This document shows positions 2,550-50,299 of a DNA stretch of 63,506 nt, piece by piece. Position 1 is the first letter of the stretch. Each line of letters opens with the position of its first letter. A program made the position numbers and the translations under genes. The notes beneath the pieces were generated by a model that saw only the letters and a program-made list of their open reading frames with translations, made no database searches and was not told the DNA's origin. Location: NCBI GenBank assembly GCA_964634715.1, contig CAZWLV010000001.1:1-63506 (forward strand), given 5' to 3'. Source of the stretch: an uncultured Lachnoclostridium sp. GTDB lineage: Bacteria > Bacillota > Clostridia > Lachnospirales > Lachnospiraceae.

Positions 2550-3392
2550 TTATCTTGATTTTAGAAACTCATATTCCTTCTGCATCAGTGCATCATCCGG
2601 ATAATTTTCCAGATATTCTTCTGTTTTTGCTCTGGCACCTGCAAAATCACCCTGTTTTTCATAACAGGCGATTTCTTCCTGTAAAAGATTCTTCAAAACC
2701 CCGGAATCTCCCAGTGCGATTCCTTTCTGAACTGCCGAAAGAGCCTTTTCGTAATCCCCGGCTGAAAAATACATTCCGGCTGTGCTTAAGCAGCCTTCTG
2801 CATCGACATTTTCACCTGAAATGTATTCTTCTAAAAATTCCATGGCTGTTTCGTGATCGCCTGTTTTTTCATAAACATTGGCAAGATAGAACAATCCTTT
2901 GGAATCCCCTTCTTTTTCGGCTTCTTCGAAACATTTCTTTGCCTTTTCCGGCTGTTCAACTACATTATAAATGATCCCGCGGATCAGCGGATCTTTTGTT
3001 TTATCCAGTGCTTTGTTCAGATCGTCCTCTGCTTTTTTTGCCTCACCGGCAGCCATATAGAGCAGTCCTCTTCCAAGGTAAGTTTCATCTGACTTTTCAA
3101 ATGCCAGAATCGCTGAATACGTATCGATGGCACCGGTCAGGTCACCGCTCCGGTACTGTGCCGATGCTTTATAGTAAGCCAGATCGATCTCTGCCTCTCC
3201 CACTTTCATATCAGCAAGTGACAACGCCTTTTCGTATTTTTCGATAGCACCGCTGTAATCTCCTGACAACTGCAGTTCCATCCCCTGCTGTTTCAAAGTC
3301 TGCTGGCGTTCGATGTGATCGTTATTGCTGCCGCAGCCTGCAATCGAGAGACTGAGTGCCAGAAATACGGCCATGATCTTACTCTTTTTCAT
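2550..3392 (-). CDS. TPR-repeat lipoprotein
   Basis: Signal peptide with lipobox LSIAGC. Repeated A/Y/G-rich 34-aa TPR-like units (YEKALSL, YYKASAQY, YLGRGLLY, FYLANVYE). Its start overlaps the upstream GT2 gene by 14 nt. Confidence 0.7.
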   Translation of the reverse strand: MKKSKIMAVFLALSLSIAGCGSNNDHIERQQTLKQQGMELQLSGDYSGAIEKYEKALSLADMKVGEAEIDLAYYKASAQYRSGDLTGAIDTYSAILAFEKSDETYLGRGLLYMAAGEAKKAEDDLNKALDKTKDPLIRGIIYNVVEQPEKAKKCFEEAEKEGDSKGLFYLANVYEKTGDHETAMEFLEEYISGENVDAEGCLSTAGMYFSAGDYEKALSAVQKGIALGDSGVLKNLLQEEIACYEKQGDFAGARAKTEEYLENYPDDALMQKEYEFLKSR

Positions 3393-4386
3393 TTACATTC
3401 CTCCAATAAGACTGATTCATGGTACATTTTAATATGAATGACCTCGAAAGTCTACGATAATTCTGTCCAAATTTATATCCTAAGATCTTTCCGGCACTGG
3501 TTGTCACTAACGGGAATAACAGCCAAGGCTTTCCAATCCTGCAAAGATACTTCGCCGTACTAAGTACCAGTTTTACCCCTTCCTTTTCTGAACGGATCCC
3601 GGCAAAGATCTCCGGATGATCCACCTGTGAAACTGCCAGATCAAAGTTCCTGTGAAACTGCTCTCTGGCATTATAATTATGAGAATGAATGACTTTGGCT
3701 TCTGCCGCATATGCGATCTTATATCCTGCTTTGATCAGTCCGCCGGCATAGATCATATCTTCGTTAAAGATGGTCCGTCTTGTAAATCCGCCCTGTCTGT
3801 CATACGTTTCTTTTTCATACATGGCACATACATTGGAACAGAAAAACGTTTTGATCCCCAAAGTATCCAGATCTTCTTTTGATTTGATCCTTGAAACTTC
3901 CGGATAGTTAAAACTTCTCGTATATTTTTCAATTTCCCTGCATGTTTCATTCGGCATCTGTCTTCCATAAACAGCTTTGATCTTTTCATCTTTTGAAAAA
4001 GCCTGCAGCAGATGCTCTGTCAGTCTGTCATCCTCCGGCATGGCATCCTGTGTCAGAAAAAGCAGATAATCTGCATCTGAAAACTCTGTCGCCTGATGTC
4101 TGGTTCCGCCGTGATCAAATTCTTCTTTTTTTAAAAGATGTACTTCACAAAGCGGATATTCCTTTTCTATTTTTTCTTTCCACGGTGCATCACCGGTATT
4201 CATCAAAATGATCTTGTTTAAAGGATAGCTCTGATTGCTCAGCCTTGCCAAAAGTTCCGGAAATTCTTTTCCCGGATGATATACCGGTATGACTGCATCA
4301 ACCCTGATTTGTCTGTTTTTTTCCATTTTCATGACTGCACAATGAGCGAGGATGAAATTTTCCTCGCTCATTGATCTTTCTTTCAT
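3379..4386 (-). CDS. family 2 glycosyltransferase (rhamnosyltransferase-like)
   Basis: 335 aa. AVIPVYHPG near the N-terminus, a TQDAMP (DxD-like) motif and FFCSNVCAMY. This is the general pattern of rhamnan-type GT2 enzymes. Confidence 0.7.
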   Translation of the reverse strand: MKERSMSEENFILAHCAVMKMEKNRQIRVDAVIPVYHPGKEFPELLARLSNQSYPLNKIILMNTGDAPWKEKIEKEYPLCEVHLLKKEEFDHGGTRHQATEFSDADYLLFLTQDAMPEDDRLTEHLLQAFSKDEKIKAVYGRQMPNETCREIEKYTRSFNYPEVSRIKSKEDLDTLGIKTFFCSNVCAMYEKETYDRQGGFTRRTIFNEDMIYAGGLIKAGYKIAYAAEAKVIHSHNYNAREQFHRNFDLAVSQVDHPEIFAGIRSEKEGVKLVLSTAKYLCRIGKPWLLFPLVTTSAGKILGYKFGQNYRRLSRSFILKCTMNQSYWRNVNEKE

Positions 4387-4389
4387 TTT

Positions 4390-5472
4390 TTAATAGATAC
4401 CTGTTGTGTTTTTGATCTTGTCACTGATCTCTGCCACTTTTTCTGTCGGTTCGTAATCAGCACTTCCAAACAGGAACGCATGGAGCTGTTTTACGTTTTC
4501 TTCCAGATTTACCGGAACAACGCAAGATGCATTGCCGATCGTTGCACTTTCCTTATCAAATGGGAAGCCTGAATTTTCTTTGATATTATAAGATAATCCG
4601 TCTGCTGCGATCGCAAGAAGCTGATCAACTGTCATGTTCGTTGCACACATTGGGAATACCGTCTTAACGATACTATCCAGTTCTGTTACACTTAAAGTCT
4701 TTGCTTTTGCTACGATCGTTTCCAGAACTTCTCTCTGTCTTTCTGTACGTTTAAAATCATCACCCTTTGTATAACGGATACGGCAGTAAGAAGTTGCCTG
4801 TACACCGTCTAAAAGCTGAAGACCTGTTGTTTTTAATTTTGTTGTTGTTTTTCCTGTTACTTTTGATGTTTCTACCGTATAGTTATTTAAATGTTCGATC
4901 TCATATTCATCAACATCGATCTCGATACCGCCCATTAAATCTACAACTTCTGAAACAGCCAGAAAGTCTACGGACATATAGTAGCTGATATTCAGGTCAA
5001 GATTCATGTTCAGCATGGCAATGGCCTGTTCCGGACCGCCTACGGAATATGCTTCATTACATTTTTTATATTTATCATTTGCAAGATTTAAATACGTATC
5101 ACGGTAAACAGATACCAGTTTTACATCTTTTGTTTCATTGTTAATGCTTGCGATCATGATCGTATCACTTCTGTTTCCTTTTCCAAGAGAACCGGCCTGT
5201 CTTGTATCCAGACCAAACAGTGCGATATTGGTATATTTTTCCATCGTTTCCAATGTTTCATCCGTCAGTTCATTTACGGATTCGTCTACGATCTTATCTT
5301 CAAAAGCAACTTTACTTAAAAGTTCTGTACGGCTCAGTACATATAATACGACCAGTAATACAACTAAGATCACTGCTTCTACGGCAAAAGTGATCATTTT
5401 GGCACGTTTACGTTTTTTGCTTTTCTTCTTTGATCCGTTTTTTGGTCTTTTGGTATCTAAATCTCTGCTCAT
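4390..5472 (-). CDS. LytR-CpsA-Psr (LCP) family glycopolymer-peptidoglycan ligase
   Basis: Basic cytoplasmic tail, one TM helix, then the LCP core RSDTIMIASINNETKDVKLVSVYRDTY. The ORF extends to 5502. I chose the ATG at 5472 because it has the RBS GAAAGGA 7 nt upstream. Confidence 0.85.
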   Translation of the reverse strand: MSRDLDTKRPKNGSKKKSKKRKRAKMITFAVEAVILVVLLVVLYVLSRTELLSKVAFEDKIVDESVNELTDETLETMEKYTNIALFGLDTRQAGSLGKGNRSDTIMIASINNETKDVKLVSVYRDTYLNLANDKYKKCNEAYSVGGPEQAIAMLNMNLDLNISYYMSVDFLAVSEVVDLMGGIEIDVDEYEIEHLNNYTVETSKVTGKTTTKLKTTGLQLLDGVQATSYCRIRYTKGDDFKRTERQREVLETIVAKAKTLSVTELDSIVKTVFPMCATNMTVDQLLAIAADGLSYNIKENSGFPFDKESATIGNASCVVPVNLEENVKQLHAFLFGSADYEPTEKVAEISDKIKNTTGIY

Positions 5473-5491
5473 GTTTGATTCCTTTCTCATG

Positions 5492-6904
5492 CTAATATGC
5501 ATTTTTGTTAATAAAACCTTTAAAGAAGGTTAAAAATATAATTTTAAAATCCAGTCCAAGTGTCCAGTTCTCTATATAGTACAGATCATGTTCAATACGC
5601 TTCCTGATGGACGTATCGCCCCGGTATCCGTTGATCTGTGCCCATCCGGTCAGTCCCGGACGAACCTGATGCTTGACCATATATCTTGGGATCTCTTCCC
5701 TGAATTTTTCTACGAAAAACGGCCGTTCCGGTCTTGGACCTACCAGACTCATATCCCCTTTTAAAATATTGAAAAGCTGAGGCAGCTCATCAATACTGGT
5801 CTTTCGGATGATCTTACCCACCGTTGTCACACGGGGATCATTTTTTACCGTCCAGCCTTTTTTTTCTTTGTTCGGATCCTGCACTTCCATCGAACGGAAC
5901 TTGTACATCTGGAATGTCTGATTATGAAGTCCTACACGCTCCTGTTTATAGATCAGCGGTCCTTTGGAAGTTGCTTTCACCGCAATGGCTGTGACCAGCA
6001 TGACCGGTGAAAACAGGACAATGGCAAACAAAGAACCTCCAATGTCCACCATTCGCTTGATCAGTGCATTAAATGTATTGGAAAGCGGTACATGACGGAT
6101 ATTAATGACCGGAAGCCCCATCAGATCTTCTGTATAAGGTCTGGTCGGGATGATATTATTATAATCCGGTATAAACTTCGTATGAACCCCTGATTTTTCA
6201 CACTCTGCTACGATGTGTTCCAGCTTGGAATACTCATTTAACCCCAGCGTAATGGCGATCTCATCTAATTCGTTTGCCGGAAGGATATACTGGAGATCAT
6301 CACAGCTTCCGATGATCTGAACACTGCGGTATTCCTGACCTTTCGGAAGATTATCATCCAGAATCCCGCATACTTCATATCCCCACTGCGGATTTCCTTT
6401 GATCCTGTCAATATATTCCTCTGCTGCCCTGCTGTATCCTACCAAAAGGATGTGCTTTAGATTAAACCCGTTTTTCCGCATTTCCCATAAGATATAGCGG
6501 ATCGCATTTCTTACACTGATCCCTGCCAGCGTATTGAGTATGCTGAAGATCACTAGAACACCACGGGAAAAATCTTTAGAAAAGATCGGCAGCTCTTTAT
6601 GAAAGATCTGAAGACAGACGATCACGGAAAGCAGTACCACGGCATTCGCCTGTGCCACATGTCCGGCTTCCAGTCTCCTGCCCTTTACACGCTTCGATGT
6701 ATACAGCTGAAACGCAAAGTATACAAACAACGTATACGGCACCAACGGGATGAGCATATAACAGTAATCCCGAAAAGGCAGTCCCTGATGCCCATGCAGA
6801 ACCGGAAATCGGATCACCCATGCCAGAAGATAGGACAGGATCACTGTGACCGCATCAATGACTACATGCAGCCGGTTGAAGTGCTTCTGATTATCTTTGA
6901 TCAT
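5492..6904 (-). CDS. polyprenyl-phosphate hexose-1-phosphate transferase (WcaJ/EpsL-type priming enzyme)
   Basis: N-terminal TM block, a central Rossmann-like region, and the C-terminal catalytic core DELPQLFNILKGDMSLVGPRPERP...RPGLTGWAQING. The ORF begins with GTG at 6913. The ATG at 6904 has an AGGTG RBS. Confidence 0.85.
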   Translation of the reverse strand: MIKDNQKHFNRLHVVIDAVTVILSYLLAWVIRFPVLHGHQGLPFRDYCYMLIPLVPYTLFVYFAFQLYTSKRVKGRRLEAGHVAQANAVVLLSVIVCLQIFHKELPIFSKDFSRGVLVIFSILNTLAGISVRNAIRYILWEMRKNGFNLKHILLVGYSRAAEEYIDRIKGNPQWGYEVCGILDDNLPKGQEYRSVQIIGSCDDLQYILPANELDEIAITLGLNEYSKLEHIVAECEKSGVHTKFIPDYNNIIPTRPYTEDLMGLPVINIRHVPLSNTFNALIKRMVDIGGSLFAIVLFSPVMLVTAIAVKATSKGPLIYKQERVGLHNQTFQMYKFRSMEVQDPNKEKKGWTVKNDPRVTTVGKIIRKTSIDELPQLFNILKGDMSLVGPRPERPFFVEKFREEIPRYMVKHQVRPGLTGWAQINGYRGDTSIRKRIEHDLYYIENWTLGLDFKIIFLTFFKGFINKNAY

Positions 6905-6916
6905 AAAATTCACCTG

Positions 6917-7870
6917 TTAATTTTTCAATCTTCGTACCATATTCAGCCACAATTCCAACTGAATATTTACATAATGAGACAGATTTTTCCATTGAAATCT
7001 GACCTTTTTTTCTTTTCTGCAAAGGGAAATGCCGGCTCTAAGACCTGATGCATATTCTTTCCCCAGCCCTTTTTTTACGAAAAACAGCCATTTGATCATA
7101 AATCCCAGAAAAAGGAATGGACTGTTTAATATTATTTGCAAAAACGGCATATTTTTATAAGCCATATAAACACTGTTTTTGGAAGACAGCTTTACTTTAA
7201 AAGCATTGTGTGCCGAACCGGAAAAACCGCTTCCCACATGATATACCACTGCCTTCGGTGCATAGACATTTCTGTATCCGAAGATCCTTGCACGATAACC
7301 GATGTCAATGTCCTCCAGATAAGCAAAATGCTCTTCGTCAAAATATCCCAGCTCTTCCAACATTTTTTTCCGGTAGATTGCTGCTCCGGCACAGGCTGCA
7401 AAAATCTCTGCCGGCGTTTCGTATTGTTCCACCGGTGCATTTTTTCCTCTTCCGAACGCCCAGCCTAATGCACAGTAATAATCTCCTGCATCATCCATGC
7501 GTGTTCGGTCATGAAACTGTACCATCTTCGATGAACAGGAAAAAATCTTTTCATCACTTTTCACTGCACGCAAAAGCTCAGAAGCAAATTTTTGATCAAC
7601 TTCTGTATCATTGTTCAGTAAGATCACATATTCACTGTCTGCTGCTTTGATCCCTTCATTGACGGCACGGCAGAATCCATAGTTCTGATCCAGCACGATC
7701 GTCTTTACCTGAGGAAATGTCCGGAGATATTCCAGACTTCCATCAGAAGAACCGTTATCTACTACGATCACTTCCTGATCTTTTATATCCTGTGCAAAAA
7801 CTGCCTTTAAACAGTTTTCCAAAAAATGTTTTCCATTATAGTTGGGAATTACAATCGATACTTCTCTCAT
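6917..7870 (-). CDS. family 2 glycosyltransferase
   Basis: VSIVIPNYNGKHFL, VVDNGSSDGS, and NNDTEV as the DxD motif. The track ORF reaches 7996, but the ATG at 7870 forms an ATGA overlap with the upstream stop. Confidence 0.8.
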   Translation of the reverse strand: MREVSIVIPNYNGKHFLENCLKAVFAQDIKDQEVIVVDNGSSDGSLEYLRTFPQVKTIVLDQNYGFCRAVNEGIKAADSEYVILLNNDTEVDQKFASELLRAVKSDEKIFSCSSKMVQFHDRTRMDDAGDYYCALGWAFGRGKNAPVEQYETPAEIFAACAGAAIYRKKMLEELGYFDEEHFAYLEDIDIGYRARIFGYRNVYAPKAVVYHVGSGFSGSAHNAFKVKLSSKNSVYMAYKNMPFLQIILNSPFLFLGFMIKWLFFVKKGLGKEYASGLRAGISLCRKEKKVRFQWKNLSHYVNIQLELWLNMVRRLKN

Positions 7871-9420
7871 ATGGAATGTCCCTTTTTCATTTTTGCTGTA
7901 GCAGCCGGTACATATGCGATCCGATAACCGCTTTTCTTTACAAAACTGCAAAGATCCTGCATCATTTCTTCGGAATCTGCCTTCTCCGGCTTCCATTTTT
8001 CAAACAATTCTCTTCTCACTGCAAAGAGCCTGAAAGAAACACCTTCTGTATTCTGCTGCAGAACAGCTTTATGAAAGTAACCGGTAAATCCTTTTGCCAG
8101 TCCGCGATCTGCGTATACCGGCTTTTTACCGCTTCCCTGCTCCATCCTTCCATAGAGCAGTTCTCCCCGATCAGAAAGGATCCTTCCGCCTGCCATACCG
8201 ATCCCATTTCGCAGACAGTTGACTGCCAGCTGGGACAATGCTTCTGCTGATATGCCATGAAGTCCTGCTTCTGCAAATAAGAGTACAGGACTGTCGATTT
8301 TCTGATCTTTGGAAAATATTACAAATTTATTAAATTCATTATCATAATATATAACATTTCCCGTATTTTGTCTATGAAATTCCCCTGAAAAATTGTTTAA
8401 TATTTTCTTATGATTTTGTCCATTAGTGGAAAAAAGAATCAAACTAGCTGAAAAATCAGCAGGAATTTGATAATTTGTCTGATAAAATCCATAAAAACGA
8501 GTCTCTGATACCGTTCCGGATTCCCCACAGCGTTCCAGATGTGCTTCCACTGCCCGCCGTCCGGCCTCATAGGCATACAGCTTGCTCATCGGATTTGCCG
8601 CCGTCGAAGCCTGATGACATCTCCAGTGATACAGTACCTTTGGAATGTGCACCACACATTTTGCCTTTTCTGTCAGCCGCAGCACAAGATCATAATCCTG
8701 CGCTCCGTCATATTCCGGACGAAAGTATCCGACAGAATCCAAAAGGGATCTTTTCACCACTGTAAAATGACAGATATAATTGTTGCTCCTTAAAAGATCC
8801 GGATTAAAATCCGGCTTATAATGCGGTTCAAAATAATGTTCCAGATCAAACGAAACTTTATCTTCGTCTGTATAGAGGACTTCTGCCTGCGGATACTGCT
8901 CCAGTGCCATACGCATTTCATAGAGTGCATGAGGTTCCAGAAGATCATCATGATCCAGCAGTCCGATATACTCACCGGCAGCCATCATAAGTCCTTCATT
9001 GGTGTTTTCTGAAATCCCTTTATTTTCTGCCAGACGTTTATATCTGATCCTCTGATCCGAAGCCATATATGCTCTGACGATCCGTTCTACACTGTCATCA
9101 CGGCTTCCATCTGCAATACAAAGCTCCACACGACAAAAAGTCTGTCCGAGGACAGACTCGATCATTTGCCTTAAAAAGAGTTCCGGCGTATGATACGTCG
9201 GAACTACAATACTAAAGGTCACATCATTTCCGGAAAAAATCTTTTTCTTCTGAGCCTCCAGCTCTTCTTTGGAAGGAAGTGCCGCCAGACGTTCTTTTTC
9301 ATAATCTTTCAACGCCAGATTTTTGGCTCTTTTTTCTTTTACTTTATAATAAGTATTCGTAAATCCGTTTCTTCTGATCTCACTGTTCAGACGCAAGATC
9401 ATGTTTGTTATTTTGGACAT
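7867..9420 (-). CDS. family 2 glycosyltransferase with an extra C-terminal GT2-like half domain
   Basis: 517 aa. FSIVVPTYHTPELF, CIADGSRDDS and LDHDDLL. The C-terminal 200 aa again resemble the acceptor half of a GT2 (RRELFEKW...GYRIAYVPAA). Confidence 0.75.
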   Translation of the reverse strand: MSKITNMILRLNSEIRRNGFTNTYYKVKEKRAKNLALKDYEKERLAALPSKEELEAQKKKIFSGNDVTFSIVVPTYHTPELFLRQMIESVLGQTFCRVELCIADGSRDDSVERIVRAYMASDQRIRYKRLAENKGISENTNEGLMMAAGEYIGLLDHDDLLEPHALYEMRMALEQYPQAEVLYTDEDKVSFDLEHYFEPHYKPDFNPDLLRSNNYICHFTVVKRSLLDSVGYFRPEYDGAQDYDLVLRLTEKAKCVVHIPKVLYHWRCHQASTAANPMSKLYAYEAGRRAVEAHLERCGESGTVSETRFYGFYQTNYQIPADFSASLILFSTNGQNHKKILNNFSGEFHRQNTGNVIYYDNEFNKFVIFSKDQKIDSPVLLFAEAGLHGISAEALSQLAVNCLRNGIGMAGGRILSDRGELLYGRMEQGSGKKPVYADRGLAKGFTGYFHKAVLQQNTEGVSFRLFAVRRELFEKWKPEKADSEEMMQDLCSFVKKSGYRIAYVPAATAKMKKGHSI

Positions 9421-9430
9421 GGATCTTCTC

Positions 9431-10108
9431 CTAGAAAGTCACTTCTCCGTCATGTGCGATCAGAGATACACTTTTTACATTTTCAATCGCTGCCACTGTC
9501 TGCACCAGTTTCGCTTCTTCTTTCACTCTTACTTCGATGATCATATCCAGATGACCTTCGGTGTAATTTCTGGATTTCACTTTACATACTTTTCCTTCTG
9601 CTTTTACTGCATCCAGTACCGCATTTTCAGCATCTAATGCAGATGCATTTACCACAAGCATCATCGGTGCTTTGGATGTCGGAACCAGATCCAGACAGAT
9701 GATCCCTACCGTTACCAGTAAAGACATCAGCAATGCGATCTCGTAAAGACCTGCACCACAGATGATCCCCACACTGATCGCCCAGAATAAGAAGACCAGA
9801 TCCATCGGATCTTTGATCGCTGTACGGAAACGGATGATCGATAACGCACCTACCATACCAAGTGAGATCACCAGATTGGACTGCATTGCCAAAATGATCG
9901 ATGCTGTGATCACGGAAAGTGCCACCAGTGAAATATTAAATGTCTTAGAATAAAATGTTTTTCTTGTGATCACTCTGTAGATCACAAAAATATAAACTGC
10001 GATCAGTACCGTTACGGCAAGTGTTGCTGCGATACGTCCGGTGCTGATATCACCGCCTGTAAAACCTTCTAAAAAGGATTTTTTGAAAATATCTGAAAAT
10101 TTTGTCAT
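9431..10108 (-). CDS. DUF4956-family integral membrane protein
   Basis: 225 aa. Four hydrophobic helices, a conserved-looking GALSIIRFRTAIKDP segment, and a soluble C-terminal domain of about 85 aa. Lies next to a VTC-domain gene, which is the usual partner of this family. Confidence 0.7.
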   Translation of the reverse strand: MTKFSDIFKKSFLEGFTGGDISTGRIAATLAVTVLIAVYIFVIYRVITRKTFYSKTFNISLVALSVITASIILAMQSNLVISLGMVGALSIIRFRTAIKDPMDLVFLFWAISVGIICGAGLYEIALLMSLLVTVGIICLDLVPTSKAPMMLVVNASALDAENAVLDAVKAEGKVCKVKSRNYTEGHLDMIIEVRVKEEAKLVQTVAAIENVKSVSLIAHDGEVTF

Positions 10109-10200
10109 TCTTATGTATACTCCTTTTCTGTATCATTATTTTTCTAACAGCTATTTTTAGTTCCTGTCCGCTTTTTTAGCAGCGGCATTGGAAATTGTAT

Positions 10201-10902
10201 TTATACATTATATTTTCTGCACAGATAAAATTTCGAATATGCCGTCTGTCTTAAACTGTCCAACTGCAGCACACTCTTGATATAATCCGGCAGAAACTCA
10301 TCAAATTTGACTTCCAGAACATGCCATCCTGCCGGCATGACCGGTCTTTTATAGATTTCTTTTTCTAAAAAAGAATCGATCTGATTTGAAGAAGAGATAT
10401 TCTCATCCAGCGTGATCCTTACATTGCCCAAATGATAAACATAGGGAACTCTGTCATATTCTACGATGATCTTCGGCTTCATCAAAGAAGTTTTCATCGC
10501 CAGCAAGAGTTTCTGCAATACCGGATCATATTCTTTGCTGTCCGGCAAAGGCTGTCCTTTCATAAGGATCCTGCACTGTTCTTCTGTCAGGGGACAGGAA
10601 AGTTTTAACGTCTTTCCACGCTCCTTTTTTTTCAGTTCCAGACTGATCTTATCTTTATTTCCATTATAAATGCGGATACGGAACTTTTCTCTTGGATCTG
10701 TTCCATTCTCATTTTCATAATAACATCTGTTATAATAATCGTCAAAATACAGGCTGCGTATCGTGTACATTCCATTTTCGCCCACATGGGAATCCAGCGG
10801 GATCAAATGATGGATCCTTCCCTGGATCAATGCCAGCTGTGCTGCCGTACAGATGTACTTCAGCTCATGACGATATTTTGGTTGATTTTTTTTATCAGAC
10901 AT
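10201..10902 (-). CDS. VTC-domain (polyphosphate-polymerase-like, CYTH/triphosphate-tunnel fold) protein
   Basis: Soluble protein. N-terminal RHELKY, and alternating charged strands (FRIRIY, SLELKKKERGK, VLEVKFD) typical of tunnel enzymes. The track ORF starts at GTG 10920. The ATG at 10902 has an AAGGAG RBS 6 nt upstream. Confidence 0.75.
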   Translation of the reverse strand: MSDKKNQPKYRHELKYICTAAQLALIQGRIHHLIPLDSHVGENGMYTIRSLYFDDYYNRCYYENENGTDPREKFRIRIYNGNKDKISLELKKKERGKTLKLSCPLTEEQCRILMKGQPLPDSKEYDPVLQKLLLAMKTSLMKPKIIVEYDRVPYVYHLGNVRITLDENISSSNQIDSFLEKEIYKRPVMPAGWHVLEVKFDEFLPDYIKSVLQLDSLRQTAYSKFYLCRKYNV

Positions 10903-10916
10903 GCAATACTCCTTGA

Positions 10917-12518
10917 TCACTGTTCCAAATAACTAGAATTATACAATGCTTCATCTAAAAAAGCCAGTCTGTTTTTTGCATAGGTCAAAAGATCCGTACA
11001 ATCTTCTGCATGGATTCCGTCTGGCCAGCGTTCTTCATCTCTGCCCATCGCTCCGGAATCACGAACCTGATGATCCAGCTGTAAGATCAGTGCTTCGATC
11101 GCATCATCGCTAAGGACATCACTCCGCAGTTCTTTATAGAGTGCCTGCATGTGATCTCTGGCTCCTTCACAGTTGAGTGCGATGATCCGGTCTCCGATCT
11201 CCCATGTAACCCGGTTCTGCAGCGTATCTGTCTGAAATTCCGTATAATATGGATTGATCTCACCTACGGAAACATTTCCCCATGTCAGATCCAGATCCCA
11301 TGGTGCAAAATAAAATTTATAGTCATACAAAAGCGTTTCGTCGTATTTTGCCACGAAAAATACATTTTTTGCCGTATGGTCATGCCCTGTGATCATCTGG
11401 ATCAAAAGCCATAATCTCATGGCACTGTCGGAATCAATGATCTCCGGCTGAACTTTTACAAACTCCTCGTCAGGCAGTGTCAGTGCCGCACAAAGATCAG
11501 CCATCGGCTTCCATGCATCTTCGTTCATTTCACCGTCTTTGATCGCAAATCCTTCTACTTCCGCCTCCGGATCCGTTTCATTATAAAAAGTTTTGTACTG
11601 GTAAGTTAATCCACCCGGATTTTTTCTTTTATAAGAATAATCTTCCTCCTGCAGATCCAGCTGTTTTCCATCTACCGGCTCCATCAGACCATAAACGCCA
11701 CAGTAGCTGTTGTCTGCAAAAACTTCTACATAAGTCATTTTCGGTCCATAATAACTGCTTTCAGAGACCGTCTCAGCTCCAAACATCCCCCAGACTTCCA
11801 TGGAAAGTTTATCCCGCAGCTTGCTCGCATCATTATAGATCGCATACAGGATCCAGTCATCGTCTTTTCTCATGCCAAACAGAGACAATTTATTTTTTTC
11901 CGTTTCTCCGTCATTTTCTTTTGTCAGATTGAGCTTGTACCCTTTTTTCGGAAACATCCTGCTTGTATTTCCCCTGATATGCCCGTTATAATCCGACTGC
12001 TGTACACCATACATCGAAAAATCCGTATCATAAAAAACGGCAGTCCCCGTAATCTCTTCTGTCAGAAAACCTTCGTTCGTAGCAAGATCGATCACCGGAA
12101 GTCCGGTAAATACGACATAATATTCTGCCCATGACTGATCATCATAGACCAGCATCTGAAAAGCTTTTCCCTGTGCGATCACTGATTTTTTATTATGGTC
12201 AGAAATGTCTTCTGCAAACAAAACACTGTATTCCGGCTGTCCGCTTACAAATTCCAGCTTTTCCCACTGTTCCTCTTCCATATCTATCGGAACATAAAAC
12301 GTACTTCCTGCATCGTCAAACGGAACACGCATTTCATTGCATAAAAGTGCGGTAAATTCCAGTTTTTCCACCTGTCTGTGTGTCTTCTGGATCAGCTGGA
12401 CTTCTCTTTTTGATACGGTATTGAATACAGCAAAATTTTTATCCTGCAGTCTGTCTATCAAAATAAAACTGCTGATCAGCAAAATAATGCTTCCTAGCAG
12501 AAACAGTTTCTTTTTCAT
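10917..12518 (-). CDS. CotH-family atypical kinase-fold protein, membrane-anchored (paralogue 1)
   Basis: 533 aa. N-terminal anchor MKKKLFLLGSIILLISSFIL. CotH-type motifs IRGNTSRMFPKKGYKLNL and FAPWDLDLTWGN. GAGGA RBS. Confidence 0.8.
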   Translation of the reverse strand: MKKKLFLLGSIILLISSFILIDRLQDKNFAVFNTVSKREVQLIQKTHRQVEKLEFTALLCNEMRVPFDDAGSTFYVPIDMEEEQWEKLEFVSGQPEYSVLFAEDISDHNKKSVIAQGKAFQMLVYDDQSWAEYYVVFTGLPVIDLATNEGFLTEEITGTAVFYDTDFSMYGVQQSDYNGHIRGNTSRMFPKKGYKLNLTKENDGETEKNKLSLFGMRKDDDWILYAIYNDASKLRDKLSMEVWGMFGAETVSESSYYGPKMTYVEVFADNSYCGVYGLMEPVDGKQLDLQEEDYSYKRKNPGGLTYQYKTFYNETDPEAEVEGFAIKDGEMNEDAWKPMADLCAALTLPDEEFVKVQPEIIDSDSAMRLWLLIQMITGHDHTAKNVFFVAKYDETLLYDYKFYFAPWDLDLTWGNVSVGEINPYYTEFQTDTLQNRVTWEIGDRIIALNCEGARDHMQALYKELRSDVLSDDAIEALILQLDHQVRDSGAMGRDEERWPDGIHAEDCTDLLTYAKNRLAFLDEALYNSSYLEQ

Positions 12519-12542
12519 CCTATTTTCCTCATATACTGCTAT

Positions 12543-12571
12543 ATTATACCATTTGACCTATTATAATTCAA
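12543..12571 (-). promoter_or_regulatory. candidate sigma-A promoter for the CotH-VTC-DUF4956 operon
   Basis: On the minus strand: -35 TTGAAT, a 17-nt spacer, and an extended -10 TGgTATAAT. It lies about 25 nt upstream of the CotH ATG. Confidence 0.5.
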
Positions 12572-12618
12572 ATATTATCACGGATTTCTTATATTTTTAT
12601 TAATTTTCCCCACAGACT

Positions 12619-12647
12619 TTGACATTTCCCCCAATTCCTTTTACATT
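12619..12647 (+). promoter_or_regulatory. candidate sigma-A promoter for the phosphoesterase gene
   Basis: -35 TTGACA (12619-12624), 17-nt spacer, -10 TACATT (12642-12647). The GGAGG RBS is at 12666-12670. Confidence 0.4.
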
Positions 12648-12675
12648 GGAACAAAGAAACGAACTGGAGGATCTT

Positions 12676-14109
12676 ATGAAAAAACGTTATCAAATTTTAT
12701 TTTCTTTATTACTGCTCCTTTCCGTCTGCATGATTGGCTGTGGAAAAGACCAGCCGCAAAGTTCTGATGAACTTTTAACGGACACCTCTGAAATGTCTCC
12801 GGATGAAACACCGGATGAAGAGCTTCCGGAAGAGATCATTTCCGATGAAGCCTCCGATGAATCTCCTATGGAAGAAGAAACTGCTGTTTCCTATCCTTAC
12901 TGGTGGGAACTTCATGATTATAATCTGGATCAGGAACTGCTGGCTGAAGACGGTGAGATTAAAAATTTAAGTATCCAGCCGGGAAACAATCCCGATGAAT
13001 TATATCTTACCTGGTTTTCAAGATCAGATTCCCGCGGAAAAGTCAAATTTCATAAAGAAGGTCTTTTTAATGACATTACCGTAAAGGCTGTAACAGAACC
13101 AAGCGTTTCTGTTGCCGGATATTACCGCAACAGTGCACTGGTCACCGGATTAGACTCCAATACCAGTTACACTTACTATGTAAAAAACGGACACAGTGTT
13201 TCACCAACTTACACTTATGAAACCGGTGATCTTACTTCTACAGACTTTACCTTTACCATTGCCGGTGATCCTGAGATCGGGCTTGGAGATCCGGAAGTGC
13301 TTCCGGGACATCGCAGCATCTGGCGTGTCATGTTAAACCGTATGAAATCCCAGATTCCGGAATCCGATTTTCTTCTGGTCATGGGAGATCAGGTCGCTGA
13401 TCCTGCTTCTGAAACACATTACGATTATTTTTTAGACAATTCCGTTTTATACTCTACGGCACTGGTACCCGTCATGGGAAATCATGATGTGGGAAGCGGA
13501 TTTTTCGGAGATCATTTTTCTCTGCCGAACCTGAATTCCATCGGTACTTCCGAAGGACGTGACGGCAACTACTGGTTTACCAGAGGAAATGTTCTTTTCA
13601 TGGTATTAAACAATCCTTCACCGACACATTATACGGAACATGAAAATTTTGTAGAAGCAACGGTCAATCAGAATCCTGATGCAAAATGGAGGGTCATCAT
13701 CAGCCATTATTCTCCTGCATCTATGGTAGAAAAATATCAGGGAGCCGCTGAATCCGTAAAATCGTCTTATTCCTACATGGCAAAAGTGTACGGGATCGAT
13801 CTGTTTTTAGGCGGTCATGACCACATTTATACCCGAAGCTATCTGATGGACGAAAACTTCAATCCGGTTTCTACAAATGTCGAATCCGAATTTTATGATC
13901 CGGGATATCCGCTCTATGTGATCTTCAACGGCTCTACTGATGCCCTGCTGCGTCAGCCGGACAATGATTATCCGTGGGCGGCCGTCTGCGTACAAAATGA
14001 TGTGCCGCAGCTTAGCCGTGCCGATGTTACAGAAAATTCTTTTACGATCACAACCTATGATGCTGATTCCTGGACTGTGATCGACAGTTTTACGATCTAT
14101 AAAGATTAA
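12676..14109 (+). CDS. secreted lipoprotein metallophosphoesterase (purple-acid-phosphatase-like)
   Basis: Lipobox MIGCGK, then an acidic low-complexity linker (DETPDEELPEEIISDEASDESPMEEE). An N-terminal PAP-type beta domain follows. Metallophosphatase motifs: IAGDPE, MGDQVAD, MGNHDV, SHYSP, GGHDHIY. Start chosen at ATG 12676 with the RBS GGAGG. Confidence 0.8.
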   Translation: MKKRYQILFSLLLLLSVCMIGCGKDQPQSSDELLTDTSEMSPDETPDEELPEEIISDEASDESPMEEETAVSYPYWWELHDYNLDQELLAEDGEIKNLSIQPGNNPDELYLTWFSRSDSRGKVKFHKEGLFNDITVKAVTEPSVSVAGYYRNSALVTGLDSNTSYTYYVKNGHSVSPTYTYETGDLTSTDFTFTIAGDPEIGLGDPEVLPGHRSIWRVMLNRMKSQIPESDFLLVMGDQVADPASETHYDYFLDNSVLYSTALVPVMGNHDVGSGFFGDHFSLPNLNSIGTSEGRDGNYWFTRGNVLFMVLNNPSPTHYTEHENFVEATVNQNPDAKWRVIISHYSPASMVEKYQGAAESVKSSYSYMAKVYGIDLFLGGHDHIYTRSYLMDENFNPVSTNVESEFYDPGYPLYVIFNGSTDALLRQPDNDYPWAAVCVQNDVPQLSRADVTENSFTITTYDADSWTVIDSFTIYKD

Positions 14110-14117
14110 AAACCGTG

Positions 14118-14146
14118 TTGCTATTTTAAATATCTAATGTTATAAT
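14118..14146 (+). promoter_or_regulatory. candidate sigma-A promoter for the HTH-Ugd gene
   Basis: -35 TTGCTA (14118-14123), exactly 17-nt spacer, consensus -10 TATAAT (14141-14146). Confidence 0.5.
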
Positions 14147-14188
14147 TATCGAAGTTGATTTTTGTAATTATTGTTATTTAAAATAGCA
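14119..14188. promoter_or_regulatory. 14-bp perfect inverted repeat (candidate operator)
   Basis: TGCTATTTTAAATA (14119-14132) and its exact reverse complement TATTTAAAATAGCA (14175-14188). The left arm overlaps the -35 box. The right arm lies between the -10 and the RBS. Confidence 0.5.
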
Positions 14189-14216
14189 TCTCATTGATAG
14201 AAAGGATGATTTTCTT

Positions 14217-15695
14217 ATGAAAAAATTGTCATTAACGTTATTATCTGATACCGTTTCTCAAAAGAGAAAAGAAAAAGGACTGACTCAGCAGCAGCTTTCT
14301 GACCTGACCGGCATCAACCGTTCCATGATCGGCCGTCTGGAAAAACAGGACTTTACACCTTCTATTTCCCAGCTGGAAAAATTAGGTGAAATCTTAGAAT
14401 TTGAACCGACCGACTTATTTACGGAATCTAAAACAGCTGCTCCGGCAGAAAAAGTTTCTCCGATGAATATCGCAGTAGCCGGTACCGGATATGTCGGACT
14501 TTCCATTGCCACACTGCTGGCACAGCATAACCATGTCACGGCCGTAGACATCATTCCTGAAAAAGTGGAAATGATCAATCACCGCCAGTCACCAATTCAG
14601 GATGAATATATTGAAAAATATCTGAGTGAAAAAGAACTGGATCTGACTGCTACGACAGACGGTGCTTCTGCTTATAAAAATGCCGATTTCGTCATCATCG
14701 CAGCACCGACCAACTATGATAGTAAGAAAAATTATTTTGACACCAGTGCAGTAGAGTCCGTGATCCAGCTGGTATTAGAAGTCAATCCGGAAGCCATTAT
14801 GGTCATTAAATCTACCATACCGGTAGGTTATACCAAAAGTGTCCGTGAAAAATTCCATACAGACCGCATTTTATTCAGCCCGGAATTTTTAAGAGAATCC
14901 AAGGCACTGTATGATAATCTTTATCCAAGCCGTATCATCGTTTCCACCGAACCGGAAAATGAACACCTTGATAAAGCTGCCCATACTTTTGCCGCACTGT
15001 TACAGGAAGGTGCCATCAAGCAAAACATCGATACGCTGTTTATGGGTTCCACTGAAGCGGAAGCGGTGAAACTTTTTGCCAATACGTACCTTGCACTCCG
15101 TGTCAGCTACTTTAACGAACTGGACACTTATGCAGAAACCAAAGGACTGGATACCCAGTCCATCATCAACGGTGTTTGTCTGGATCCAAGGATCGGAACA
15201 CATTACAACAATCCTTCTTTCGGATACGGTGGTTATTGCCTTCCAAAAGACACAAAACAGCTTCTTGCCAACTACGATCAGGTTCCGCAGAATATGATGT
15301 CTGCCATTGTCGAAAGCAACCGTACAAGAAAAGATTTCATCGCAGACCGTGTTTTAGAGCTTGCAGGTGCTTATGAAGCCAACAGTTCCTGGGAACAGGA
15401 AAAAGAAAAAGAAGTTGTTGTCGGCGTTTATCGTTTGACCATGAAGAGTAACTCTGACAACTTCCGCCAGAGCAGCATTCAGGGAGTTATGAAACGGATC
15501 AAAGCAAAAGGAGCCACCGTTATCATTTATGAACCGGCTCTGGAAAACGGCACCACGTTCTTTGGCAGCAAAGTCATCAACAATCTGGCTGAATTCAAGA
15601 AAAAAAGCCGTGCCATCATCGCCAACCGCTACGACAGCTGTTTAGATGATGTCAAAGAAAAAGTTTATACGAGAGATCTCTTCCGCAGAGATTGA
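14217..15695 (+). CDS. ugd: fusion protein: XRE-type helix-turn-helix domain + UDP-glucose 6-dehydrogenase
   Basis: Residues about 10-70 are an HTH_3-like domain ([41 protein letters not shown]). From residue 83 it is a full nucleotide-sugar dehydrogenase ([14 protein letters not shown], catalytic GGYCLPKD). There is no stop and no obvious internal RBS between the two parts. Confidence 0.85.
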
Positions 15696-15712
15696 TCATC
15701 TTCTCTAATATT

Positions 15713-15743
15713 AAAAAAACAGGTTCTAAGACCTGTTTTTTTA
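15713..15743. terminator. bidirectional rho-independent terminator
   Basis: AAAAAAACAGGT-tctaag-ACCTGTTTTTTT: a stem flanked by an A-run and a T-run. It lies between convergent genes ending at 15695 (+) and 15789 (-). Confidence 0.7.
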
Positions 15744-15788
15744 ATATCCTTTGAATCTTTCCTTTACAAAGTTTCAAAAACACATTTG

Positions 15789-16724
15789 TTATTTTCTGCG
15801 GATCCAATGCTTTTTGACTTTCTTTAATACATTTACCACTCTTGAAGGCAGGAGTTTTTTCAGATGACGTTTGACTTTTTTCCGAAAACTTTCCCGTTTT
15901 ACCGAAATCACACAGTCATAAACAGTTTCTTCAATACTTCCGTAATGGGTCTTATATTCAAAATCTCCCCCTGCAAAAAACAGTTCCGTATGTTTTTTCT
16001 CCACCATCCGCACCAGATGATGGAAAAATACTGCTTTTCCAAGAGAATAATCTCTCATTTCCGGATTATATGCAAAATTTTCTCCATAAACGACCGGGCA
16101 CTGTTCACAGGAAAACCGGACGGCTCCGATCGTTCCTCCAAAAGTAAATACGTAACAATCCGAAACATGATAACGATCCAGATATTCCTCCGGTGTCATC
16201 TTATAAACTCTGTTTCTCGTTGCATATTTAAACTCAAAAAAGGCTTCCACTACTTCCATAGGGATCTCATTTCTCTGATATTCCTTAATCTCCATCTTTC
16301 CGTAGGCTTCTTCTGCAAACCGCAGTTTTTTACGCATTTTCTGACGGGATTTGTAAGAGATCCGATGTTCCATTTCTTCTACAGTGTCCGGAAATACGAT
16401 CCTGAAATGATTATGCGCATGGGCTTTTCCACAAGCTATTACACCATTTTTATAGGTCACTTTTTTGATCTGCGGATGCTTTTTCCCGATATAAGAAACC
16501 AGCTTCTGCACTTCCTCTTTTGTAAGTGACATCAGCCAGATCCCAAGCTCTGCTTCTTCTTTCTGTAAGCGGTATTCTACGATCTTTCTTTCTTTTCCAT
16601 GGATGATCTTTACTGCTCTATATTCTTCCGGCTTACAAAACAGATCATATCTGTTATAAATAAAATCCGGATCCATCTTTTCTAATTCTTTTGTATTTTT
16701 TACACTTTTTATTTTGATTCTCAT
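15789..16724 (-). CDS. FemAB/CelD-like (Acetyltransf_6-type) GNAT-fold acyltransferase, function unknown
   Basis: 311 aa. The C-terminal region LGKAVFFHHLVRMVEKKHTELFFAGGDFEYKTHYG resembles the BioF2/CelD-like acyltransferase family. The family assignment is by eye only. Confidence 0.5.
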   Translation of the reverse strand: MRIKIKSVKNTKELEKMDPDFIYNRYDLFCKPEEYRAVKIIHGKERKIVEYRLQKEEAELGIWLMSLTKEEVQKLVSYIGKKHPQIKKVTYKNGVIACGKAHAHNHFRIVFPDTVEEMEHRISYKSRQKMRKKLRFAEEAYGKMEIKEYQRNEIPMEVVEAFFEFKYATRNRVYKMTPEEYLDRYHVSDCYVFTFGGTIGAVRFSCEQCPVVYGENFAYNPEMRDYSLGKAVFFHHLVRMVEKKHTELFFAGGDFEYKTHYGSIEETVYDCVISVKRESFRKKVKRHLKKLLPSRVVNVLKKVKKHWIRRK

Positions 16725-16797
16725 GTGGCATTATCTCCCCAAATAATATAAAATGTATTGTATCATATATCAAGAGGAGTGTCCACGGAGGTTACTT

Positions 16798-18159
16798 ATG
16801 ATTCATAAAGAGAAAACACGATTATATTTTGCACCGCATCAGGATGACGAACTTCTGACCATGGGGATCGACATCAGTTCTTCGATCTCTCATAACTGTG
16901 AAGTACATGTGATCTTATGTACTGATGGTTCCAGATCCAATGTCCGCAAAACTTTAAATAATGGAACAACCTGTTCCAAACACGATGGTACTCATATTTA
17001 CGAACTTTCTGCTGAAGAATTTACTGCTGCCAGAGATAAAGAATTTACAGACAGCTGTCTTGCTTTGGGAGTCCCTGCTTCCAACATCCATATTTATGAA
17101 GAGCGTTCCGTTGACGGCAGCCTTTCTGTGGAAGCTGCCCAAAAGATCATCAGCCACTATACTTCCCTTTATGGAAAAGATGCTGTTGTCTGTACGATCG
17201 CTCCAAACAACGGTCCTGCCCAGCATAAAGACCACAAGGCACTGGGAAAAGCAGCTGAAAATTTATTAAACAACGGAAAATTACAGGAAGTTCATTTTTT
17301 CATCGAACCGTATCATGCAAAAAAAGTACTGGATAATCCACGTCTGCTTCCGCTCTATCCATTTTCCCAAAAGGCATCTTCTGCCACGGCTCAGCAGCTG
17401 AAAAAGGCAATCCAGTCTTACTCTTACTGGAATCCCCAAAAACAGCGTTATGCCGTAGGATATCATTCTGTCACCACAGAATTTAATGACTTTTTAAAAG
17501 AGATGACTTCTTATCATTACGTCAAAAAACCATGGTCTTCCATGAGTGCGGCAGATAAATTAAATTACCGTTACCGACGCTGGTTAAAACTGCAAAAGCA
17601 ATCCCAGCTGTTTTATTCCATGGCAGAGTGTCCGCAGCCAAATCTGGACTCTTTAACAGCAGTTTCTGTGGAAAAACAGGAAGATTACCGTAATTTCTGC
17701 CAGAAATATGATTTAAAACTCCGGGAAAAAGATCTTCAGCGGCTTTCCGACGGTTCTTCTTTCTGGTGCCTGCTCAACGAAGATCAGATCGTGGTATCTA
17801 CCGGCTGGCTTGTTTATGGCTCTCAGTTTTACATCGGTGAAACAGACTACGGATTTGATATGAAGCATTCTTCCGCCGGCATTCTGTTTGATTTTAATAC
17901 CAAACCGGAATACCGTGGAAACGGTTACTATGGACTTTTGCTGCAAAGCATCGTTCATCGTGCCAAAAAACCTTCCCGTTTCATCATCTACACTGCACCG
18001 GACAATACTGCCAGTGCCAGAGGGATCCAAAAAGCCGGCTTTCATTTTGGCGGTGCTTTATCCGCATCAGAGCATACACTCAAACCTTATCTGAAATCAG
18101 CCGGATTTACATCCATCTTTCGAAAAAACCGTTTCTTTGGAATGCGGGTTCGTAAGTAA
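16798..18159 (+). CDS. fusion protein: PIG-L/LmbE-type N-deacetylase + C-terminal GNAT acetyltransferase
   Basis: N-terminal YFAPHQDDELL and QHKDHKALG (LmbE zinc-site motifs). C-terminal GNAT motif A, YRGNGYYGLLLQ, then ARGIQKAGF. Start at ATG 16798 with a GGAGG RBS 6 nt upstream. Confidence 0.7.
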   Translation: MIHKEKTRLYFAPHQDDELLTMGIDISSSISHNCEVHVILCTDGSRSNVRKTLNNGTTCSKHDGTHIYELSAEEFTAARDKEFTDSCLALGVPASNIHIYEERSVDGSLSVEAAQKIISHYTSLYGKDAVVCTIAPNNGPAQHKDHKALGKAAENLLNNGKLQEVHFFIEPYHAKKVLDNPRLLPLYPFSQKASSATAQQLKKAIQSYSYWNPQKQRYAVGYHSVTTEFNDFLKEMTSYHYVKKPWSSMSAADKLNYRYRRWLKLQKQSQLFYSMAECPQPNLDSLTAVSVEKQEDYRNFCQKYDLKLREKDLQRLSDGSSFWCLLNEDQIVVSTGWLVYGSQFYIGETDYGFDMKHSSAGILFDFNTKPEYRGNGYYGLLLQSIVHRAKKPSRFIIYTAPDNTASARGIQKAGFHFGGALSASEHTLKPYLKSAGFTSIFRKNRFFGMRVRK

Positions 18160-25129: not shown

Positions 25130-25204
25130 GTAAAACCTTCCTTTGTCACTTTTTGCATTTGTTGTCATTTTACGGGTTTTGAAACCCTTATTTTTACACC
25201 CTCG

Positions 25205-40095: not shown

Positions 40096-40160
40096 AATTA
40101 CTCCTTTAAGGAAAATGCTGCGATCTACAGGTACCTTTGATACGATCACAGAAAACGATC

Positions 40161-49264: not shown

Positions 49265-50299
49265 TTAGTGTATCGATCCTTCAGAACCGTTTTCAGCTGT
49301 AAGCATCTTTTTCAATAATTTTTGAGAGTTTTCCACATAGTCCTCTAATTTCTGGCTGCTCTGTCCACAATCCACATGATAAACTTTTTCCGAAACCCTG
49401 TCTGCCTGAAAACCGCTTGCCTCGATCAGTTCTGCCTGTCTGGAACTTAACATGGAATGATGGACACAATCTACTTTTTTTCTGAAAATATACGAAAATG
49501 CCAGCCCGTGAAACGAATTGGTTACGATACAGGAGGCATTCCTGATCAATGCCAGAAAATCTTCCACACCCGCATCTGACATAAATTCATCACAGTTCTG
49601 AATCCGGTCGTTCATCGGGTGAAGTGATATGATCTTTTTTCCGGTCTCTTTTTGTAATTTTTCTGTTAATCGGTCAATTTCTTCTGAATATTCCAGAGAA
49701 TATACAAGAATATGTCCTTTTCGATTGCTGTATTCTGAAGTTTCTGCCAGTTTTTCGTAAATTTCCGGTTTTTTGTAAAAAAGAAAGGTCGGATCACAAA
49801 CAGTTTCGGCCGATATTCCCATCTTTTCTAAAATTTGTCGGGCAGAATCTTCCCTGACCGTTAAAAAACGATAATTTTCAAGCACCTTTTTATGAGAACG
49901 AAAATACGCTTCTTCTTTTTGTGAAAGTTTTCCCGTACCAAAACTTGCCGCATACGAACACAATGCTCCATAGTTTCCCTTTGGTTCGATCCAGAAATCA
50001 TCTTCTCCGGTAATCCCTAAATTCCATACCTGATCGGAACCGATGAGCACCCGGTCATAGGTTTCTTTTACAGAACTTCTCTTAAAATATTGTTTTCGAA
50101 ACTGCTCTATTTTTTTCTCAAATCCCCTTGGCAGAAATTTTTTCCGAATCTTTGTTTTTTTACTGATCATCTGCTCCGGAACATAATCGATCACGCTGAC
50201 CTGTGCCCCATAAGCCTTACAGGCTTCCTGCAGTGCATAGCACTGAAGCACTGCTCCGTAATTATCTGCAAATTGAAATGTCAGAATCCCTGTTTTCAA
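49265..50299 (-). CDS. polysaccharide pyruvyl transferase family protein
   Basis: The N-terminus KTGILTFQFADNYGAVLQCYALQ is typical of the CsaB/WcaK-like pyruvyl transferase family. Assignment is by eye. Confidence 0.65.
   Translation of the reverse strand: MKTGILTFQFADNYGAVLQCYALQEACKAYGAQVSVIDYVPEQMISKKTKIRKKFLPRGFEKKIEQFRKQYFKRSSVKETYDRVLIGSDQVWNLGITGEDDFWIEPKGNYGALCSYAASFGTGKLSQKEEAYFRSHKKVLENYRFLTVREDSARQILEKMGISAETVCDPTFLFYKKPEIYEKLAETSEYSNRKGHILVYSLEYSEEIDRLTEKLQKETGKKIISLHPMNDRIQNCDEFMSDAGVEDFLALIRNASCIVTNSFHGLAFSYIFRKKVDCVHHSMLSSRQAELIEASGFQADRVSEKVYHVDCGQSSQKLEDYVENSQKLLKKMLTAENGSEGSIH

Follow-up and report, generated by a model that had tools for sequence, protein, structure and literature searches.

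The 63,506-bp window analysed here is a complete contig from an uncultured member of the Lachnospiraceae, and as a whole it is a wall-glycopolymer gene supercluster. On its minus strand lie three consecutive genes (the triad) encoding a CotH-family kinase, a VTC-domain protein and a DUF4956 membrane protein. In this window the triad is the head of an operon for a glycopolymer attached by an LCP (LytR_cpsA_psr) ligase, and it is a portable cell-envelope module. The module is real, conserved and widespread; earlier publications mention it, and some genetic work has been done on it. New here is a triad in a non-Pel context, accompanied by three CotH paralogues.

The genes of the triad were identified by Pfam on the minus strand: CotH at 10917-12518 (533 aa), VTC at 10201-10920 (239 aa) and DUF4956 at 9431-10108 (225 aa). 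The CotH stop codon and the VTC open reading frame (ORF) overlap by 4 nt, and 92 nt separate VTC from DUF4956. The top tblastn match of the DUF4956 protein, at 84% identity, was in metagenome-assembled Lachnospiraceae genomes. The DUF4956 alignment was scanned against one genome per GTDB species, which gave more than 600 places, and the best 80 loci were analysed by ORF calling and iterated profiles. A stand-alone YfhO gene in locus L048, matched by way of a YfhO-CotH fusion used in training the CotH profile, was excluded from the counts. A VTC gene adjoined the DUF4956 gene in 75/80 loci, and in 53/57 of those with 4 kb or more of sequence on either side. CotH was present in 64/80 loci, and within 4.5 kb in 49/57. 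The order seen in the window, CotH-VTC-DUF4956, was the commonest (36 loci); VTC-DUF4956 was found in 15 loci and VTC-DUF4956-CotH in 11. Two CotH matches flanked or followed the pair in 10 loci, the second being a fragment in two of them (L047 and L059). The gene order is far above chance and recurs in dozens of species, so that the conserved neighbourhood on which the original prediction, a reading of the bare sequence, had staked its case was borne out. Two further carriers of the triad are a Planococcus plasmid and the actinobacterium Nonomuraea. In one locus (L080) two full triads in the window's order lay less than 10 kb apart, at 7165-10666 (+) and 14268-17614 (-), and in another (L024; 2-1397 and 7746-10672) a second VTC-DUF4956 pair was cut by the contig end.

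Downstream of the triad, a gap of 10 bp (9421-9430) separates DUF4956 from a GT2 glycosyltransferase gene (7867-9420). The minus strand then carries a second GT2 gene (6917-7996), a priming sugar-phosphate transferase with Bac_transf and CoA_binding_3 domains (5492-6913), the LCP ligase that attaches glycopolymer to the wall (4390-5502) and a third GT2 gene (3379-4386), which ends the conserved downstream operon. Pfam and ORF calls placed the triad, the first two GT2 genes, the priming transferase and the LCP gene where they had been predicted. Synteny supported the same assignments: the GT2-GT2-BacT-LCP-GT2 operon followed the VTC-DUF4956 pair in 12 loci. The commonest families among 276 sampled neighbours included GT2 (22), ABC transporters (11), priming transferases (10), Cthe_2159 (7) and response regulators (7). 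No pel-specific family was among the 25 commonest families in either neighbour sample (80 loci, 276 genes), and no PelG/PelD/PelA-type family was found among the ORFs scanned across the 63.5-kb window. The window and the comparative data together show that the triad is not Pel-specific. Cthe_2159 carbohydrate-binding beta-helix proteins were encoded directly beside VTC-DUF4956 in L070 (7919-10036), L076 (10754-12610), L079 (10752-12626) and L017 (9075-9947), often where CotH was absent (L070, L076 and L079), and may be a fourth module member.

Upstream of the CotH gene, 24 nt from its start codon, is a candidate sigma-70-like promoter with an extended -10 element (TTGAAT-17-TGnTATAAT, 12543-12571, minus strand). 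It has 10/12 matches with the TG present and is a consensus match only, in a region that gave 26 matches to the consensus against 12.7 expected, about twice the number in shuffled sequence. An Rfam scan of 9000-14400 found no RNA element. NCBIfam had no model for CotH, VTC, DUF4956 or the phosphoesterase encoded divergently from them.

The CotH protein matched PF08757 at residues 180-520 with 122.3 bits (cut-off 23.8). Its motifs, HIRGNTSRMFPKKGYKL at residues 180-196 and APWDLDLTWG at 405-414, were read directly in the translation and are intact, as originally reported. Single-sequence PDB searches with VTC and CotH returned nothing useful, and profiles were needed: a profile of the three window CotH paralogues matched Bacillus cereus CotH in PDB (5jd9, E 5.9e-9). 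The AlphaFold2 (AF2) model (pLDDT 91.3) placed a membrane helix at residues 2-26 and a beta-sandwich at about 58-165, followed by the kinase domain, and Foldseek aligned it to 5jd9 with E 1.5e-16 and TM 0.69. Residues D380...N385 aligned to the catalytic-loop FDGFVHN of 5jd9 and W407-D408-x-D410 to its PWDYD; D380, N385, D408 and D410 were invariant across 47 homologues. By alignment and model, the catalytic loop and metal-binding aspartates are kept and the kinase catalytic apparatus is complete. The catalytic-dead mutant of B. subtilis CotH is D228Q (PMC7821199).

The kinase domain is predicted to lie outside the membrane, anchored by one N-terminal helix. An N-terminal hydrophobic 17-mer was found in 70/74 CotH homologues, and the remaining four were fragments, in keeping with the exofacial placement first proposed. 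Long CotH forms carry lamin-tail (LTD), chitobiase-C, Fn3-associated and InlB-repeat domains. In a Lachnospiraceae locus (L032, 5112-9272, +) one reading frame encodes a 1386-aa protein that joins a YfhO (GT-C) glycosyltransferase to CotH; in L048 (5144-9288, +) VTC-DUF4956 is preceded by neighbouring but separate genes for YfhO and CotH. Teichoic acids are glycosylated by YfhO enzymes on the outer side of the membrane, and the fusion therefore ties CotH to glycopolymer modification outside the cytoplasm. The extracellular-type domains of the long forms and the YfhO fusion both support an outward-facing CotH.

Two further membrane-anchored CotH paralogues are encoded on the minus strand of the window, at 36930-38465 (27% identical to the first) and 38506-40191 (49% identical). 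This tandem closes a Wzx/Wzy-type polysaccharide operon, and both proteins have N-terminal hydrophobic segments; the window thus holds three CotH paralogues and only one VTC/DUF4956 pair. Directly upstream of the tandem paralogues is an ORF with no Pfam match (40161-41753, minus strand, 530 aa). Among known proteins the window CotH is close to the Bacillus CotH spore-coat kinase and the Fam20C-type secretory kinases: its fold and catalytic residues are those of 5jd9, and like the Fam20 kinases it is predicted to act on the far side of a membrane. Bacillus CotH differs in that it has no membrane anchor, resides in the mother-cell cytoplasm and uses ATP, whereas the window protein has an N-terminal anchor, an extra beta-sandwich, a wall-glycan operon around it and an apparently non-spore-coat context.

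The VTC protein matched PF09359 with 130.5 bits (cut-off 23, E 9e-38) over profile positions 2-230 of 235. This was its single Pfam domain, and there was no SPX domain. The RHELKY motif is at residues 17-22, and homologues suggest that the true start may be ATG 10902. The sole PDB match of a profile of 19 VTC homologues was yeast Vtc4 (3g3q), and that match was weak (E 0.008). In the alignment to 3g3q (numbering offset 185), R81, R83, K97, Y155, R157 and R168 correspond to Vtc4 R264, R266, K281, Y359, R361 and R373, and all six were invariant in the 19 homologues. These Vtc4 residues are the mutationally defined polymerase residues. Assignment of K21, E203 and S229 as equivalents of K200, E426 and S457 came from the alternating charged-strand pattern only, not from the alignment. 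The protein appears to be a cytosolic tunnel enzyme of the triphosphate-tunnel fold, polyphosphate-polymerase-like, with intact Vtc4-like catalytic residues; the soluble tunnel protein with basic tunnel residues first proposed from the sequence agrees with this. The eukaryotic VTC complex, with its Vtc4 tunnel and Vtc1/2/3/4 channel, is similar in its Pfam catalytic family, its tunnel residues and the obligatory pairing of the catalytic domain with a membrane partner. It differs from the system here, in which the catalytic protein is separate, soluble and without SPX and the partner is MgtC-like with no match to DUF202.

The DUF4956 protein matched PF16316 with 46.5 bits (cut-off 30.6), as did 54/54 diverse homologues, and the family comprises 5,523 representative clusters at 50% identity and E <=1e-3. 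Residues 87-101 carry the motif GALSIIRFRTAIKDP; the family has its own signature, GALSI(I/V)RFRTAxKD, and Y44, G87, A88, R93, R95, K99, D103 and G114 were invariant among the 54 members. The AF2 model (pLDDT 73.8) exhibited an amphipathic helix (4-17), five hydrophobic helices and a C-terminal domain (149-218) with an ACT-like beta-alpha-beta-beta-alpha-beta arrangement. Membrane helices and a soluble C-terminal domain had been expected and were found; the number of helices had been put at four, and AF2 and hydropathy gave five (23-47, 54-74, 78-97, 101-118 and 122-141). The positive-inside rule puts the C-terminal domain and the R93/R95/K99/D103 cluster on the cytoplasmic side. Against the MgtC family (PF02308) the window protein scored 15.2 bits, under the cut-off of 31.4. 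Sub-threshold MgtC matches occurred in 45/54 homologues (best 2.9e-6), and NCBIfam gave a faint MgtC/SapB match. These scores suggest a remote relative of MgtC rather than a member of the MgtC family. DUF4956 shares the layout of Salmonella MgtC, with some five helices in a hydrophobic N-terminal domain followed by a cytoplasmic ACT-like domain; it differs in its sub-gathering score, its own signature and its VTC gene partner. Foldseek matched the model only to small ferredoxin-like, ACT, NikR and BMC-type domains, with E >=1e-3 and in the C-terminal domain.

The original prediction also regarded the triad as lacking an experimental description, a view that published work overturns: the triad was reported beside Gram-positive pel loci in 2020, and a 2025 study of Streptococcus intermedius deleted its genes, with phenotypes that were modest and did not run in parallel. 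Whitfield et al. (bioRxiv 10.1101/768473; PLoS Pathog 2020) described an accessory group of cotH, polyphosphate polymerase, DUF4956 and DUF4832 genes that adjoins pelDEADAFG in streptococci, clostridia and bifidobacteria. The locus here resembles that group in having the same three families beside a surface-polysaccharide locus and a CotH predicted to be secreted. Adjacency of the triad is shared, but here it is not contiguous with pelDEADAFG; its operon also encodes a priming transferase and an LCP ligase, it has no DUF4832 hydrolase, and its CotH has no FN3 domain. In S. intermedius (mBio 2025, PMC12345266), SIR_1594 is CotH, SIR_1593 is VTC and SIR_1592 is DUF4956, the last described as an MgtC domain plus an ACT domain. 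Deletion of SIR_1592 or SIR_1594 reduced aggregation by more than half in sputum medium, and the authors did not find the triad outside pel loci. In the literature searched we found no mechanism for the triad, either proposed or tested.

A 2010 description of Clostridium perfringens NELoc-2 (CP4_0460-0468) lists VTC, 'tubulin/FtsZ' and CotH beside a chitin-synthase-like gene; the gene then called 'tubulin/FtsZ' is DUF4956, and in the same layout on the Planococcus plasmid it is annotated as such. NELoc-2 and the Planococcus maritimus plasmid NZ_CP059541 are like the window in carrying VTC, DUF4956 and CotH adjacent on one strand; their own order is VTC-DUF4956-CotH. They differ in the genes that follow, a large hypothetical, a HEAT-repeat protein and a chitin-synthase-like glycosyltransferase, and belong to a different polysaccharide system. 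On the plasmid (4470-12824) the genes are a hypothetical, VTC, DUF4956, CotH, a 689-aa hypothetical, a HEAT-repeat protein and a glycosyltransferase. The order is that of NELoc-2, which suggests a second conserved polysaccharide system using the triad.

The single best explanation of the module, which we favour tentatively and rate as somewhat less than probable, is that VTC and DUF4956 supply polyphosphate to outward-facing CotH. On the inner side of the membrane, the VTC protein would convert ATP into polyphosphate or a short oligophosphate. DUF4956 would dock the VTC protein by means of its invariant R93/R95/K99/D103 cluster, where helices 3 and 4 end on the cytoplasmic side, and would pass or gate the product across the membrane. 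With this donor, outward CotH could phosphorylate glycopolymers of the surface or proteins involved in handling these, and a single VTC/DUF4956 pair could be enough for the three CotH paralogues of the 63-kb supercluster. We infer each of these steps by guilt by association, though the anatomy fits. In its favour we counted the loci with several CotH genes per pair, the glycan genes around the pair and the S. intermedius deletions of the CotH and DUF4956 genes, which altered Pel levels and halved aggregation. Much of the earlier polyphosphate reading stood, namely the conserved linkage, the outward-facing CotH and the retained catalytic residues; its opposing phosphoesterase did not. Its channel role for DUF4956 found no support, as the protein is MgtC-like and its membrane part resembles no solved structure. 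The more specific version, in which VTC and the MgtC-like DUF4956 form a two-part bacterial polyphosphate synthase and translocase that powers CotH outside the membrane, where ATP is absent, so that it phosphorylates wall glycopolymers or surface proteins, we consider unlikely.

Several observations weigh against polyphosphate supply. In S. intermedius, Pel increased in the SIR_1592 (DUF4956) mutant and decreased in the SIR_1594 (CotH) mutant, and deletion of SIR_1593 (VTC) had no phenotype (PMC12345266); the opposite Pel shifts and the null VTC deletion argue against a simple linear supply chain. Co-location is not obligatory: the pair had no nearby CotH in 15/80 loci, and there is no VTC or DUF4956 gene beside the window's CotH paralogues at 36930-38465 and 38506-40191. 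Flanking genes were highly variable, with 437 neighbours falling into 300 clusters. The membrane part of DUF4956 matched no solved structure in Foldseek and no Pfam family beyond DUF4956 and MgtC, and its invariant basic residues are at the cytoplasmic face only. The VTC channel helices belong to the DUF202 family, to which DUF4956 had no Pfam match. DUF4956 looks no less like a regulator (MgtC) than like a conduit. In addition, we know of no CotH/Fam20-fold kinase that uses polyphosphate.

The resemblance to MgtC is the starting point of a regulatory explanation, which is somewhat unlikely as a whole. Here DUF4956 would sense a small ligand through its ACT-like domain and, with VTC, tune cytoplasmic ATP, phosphate or polyphosphate and through it surface polysaccharide output, while CotH would separately phosphorylate outward-facing machinery proteins using released ATP. 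Salmonella MgtC lowers ATP and represses cellulose synthesis, which we counted in favour of this explanation. The MgtC matches of the homologues (45/54, best 2.9e-6), the ACT- and NikR-like fold of the C-terminal domain and the recurrence of two-component systems beside the VTC/DUF4956 pair are consistent with it, and deletion of the S. intermedius DUF4956 gene raised Pel as loss of a repressor would. Regulation does not account, however, for an outward kinase co-inherited in about 80-86% of loci or for a VTC gene that nearly always adjoins DUF4956, and ATP is scarce outside the cell.

In another explanation VTC and DUF4956 would make and export a teichoic-acid-like wall polyphosphate as a surface polyanion, with CotH or Cthe_2159 anchoring, capping or trimming it rather than CotH using it as a donor. 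The 15 loci with the pair and no CotH count in its favour. Cthe_2159 does stand beside the pair in place of CotH in L070, L076 and L079, and the window is rich in genes for anionic wall polymers (TagF-like, TarI-like, pyruvyl transferase and CWB2). The complete kinase catalytic apparatus of CotH argues against such a role, and we know of no report of covalently wall-bound polyphosphate in Firmicutes, which also counts against it. We regard this explanation as quite unlikely; it and the regulatory one are nonetheless serious rivals of polyphosphate supply. We think it very unlikely that VTC is a CYTH-type triphosphatase or other nucleotide-phosphate enzyme linked to its neighbours by an unrelated shared role in phosphate recycling, for example from nucleotide-sugar or undecaprenyl-phosphate turnover. 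The tunnel fold is common to triphosphatases and adenylate cyclases, the Vtc4 match in PDB was weak (E 0.008) and the equivalence of K21 to K200 comes from strand pattern, but the near full-length Pfam match is VTC-specific (E 9e-38) and the six Vtc4 polymerase residues are kept.

The gene divergent from the triad (12676-14109, +) encodes, by Pfam and translation, a lipoprotein with Pur_ac_phosph_N and Metallophos domains and a lipobox, MIGC, with Cys22. Its start is likely ATG 12676, preceded by a GGAGG ribosome-binding site, with TTG 12619 less likely; the former start gives a divergent intergenic region of 157 bp. The divergent lipoprotein and this control region were predicted correctly. 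Of the five metal-site motifs first reported, GNHD, IISH and GHDH are present, and motif II reads GDQVA, without the GDxxY tyrosine of true purple acid phosphatases. The mature N-terminus (12676-12850, +) is a long acidic Ser/Thr-rich linker, SSDELLTDTSEMSPDETPDEE...SDEASDES, with S-x-E-like sites, and is conceivably a substrate of a secreted kinase. A phosphoesterase homologue was found in 3/80 loci, in the closest relatives only, and the enzyme was rejected as a conserved module partner: it is a lineage-specific neighbour and not part of the conserved module. That it is the dedicated opposing activity of the module, as first proposed, is highly improbable given this distribution and the altered motif II, even with an outward lipoprotein that has its control region in common with the operon; the comparative data largely refute a general opposing activity, and a local role is possible.

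Elsewhere in the supercluster are four TagF-like glycerophosphotransferases, a TarI-like cytidylyltransferase, a TagGH-type ABC-2 exporter, three priming transferases in total, a Wzx flippase, a Wzy-like protein, a pyruvyl transferase, an FnlABC-like set, many GT2 genes and CWB2 proteins. The gene just downstream of the phosphoesterase (14217-15695, +) encodes a UDP-glucose/GDP-mannose dehydrogenase with an XRE-type helix-turn-helix domain at its N-terminus, an enzyme fused to a possible regulator. A single protein encoded at 16753-18159 (+) combines a PIG-L-type de-N-acetylase with a GNAT acetyltransferase domain; opposite it, at 15789-16724, is another GNAT-like gene. The GH25 lysozyme encoded at 23117-25168 (-) has three CWB2 wall-binding repeats, and GH25 recurs near the triad in other loci. 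Like the ORF at 40161-41753, those at 50296-51507 (403 aa) and 60906-62399 (497 aa), also on the minus strand, lie in polysaccharide operons and have no Pfam match.

In bacteria the enzymes credited with making polyphosphate are PPK1 and PPK2, and polymerases of the VTC type are regarded as eukaryotic. Yet DUF4956 comprises roughly 5,500 clusters, and its gene is almost always paired with a VTC gene. The triad bears on how outward-facing bacterial kinases are supplied with a phosphate donor: if VTC and DUF4956 are indeed a two-part synthase and translocase, bacteria would have a new route to polyphosphate and a new way to power phosphorylation outside the cytoplasm. Gut commensals and pathogens such as S. 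intermedius and C. perfringens have the module next to surface-polysaccharide loci, so that its chemistry could influence how cells aggregate, form biofilms and are recognised by the immune system.

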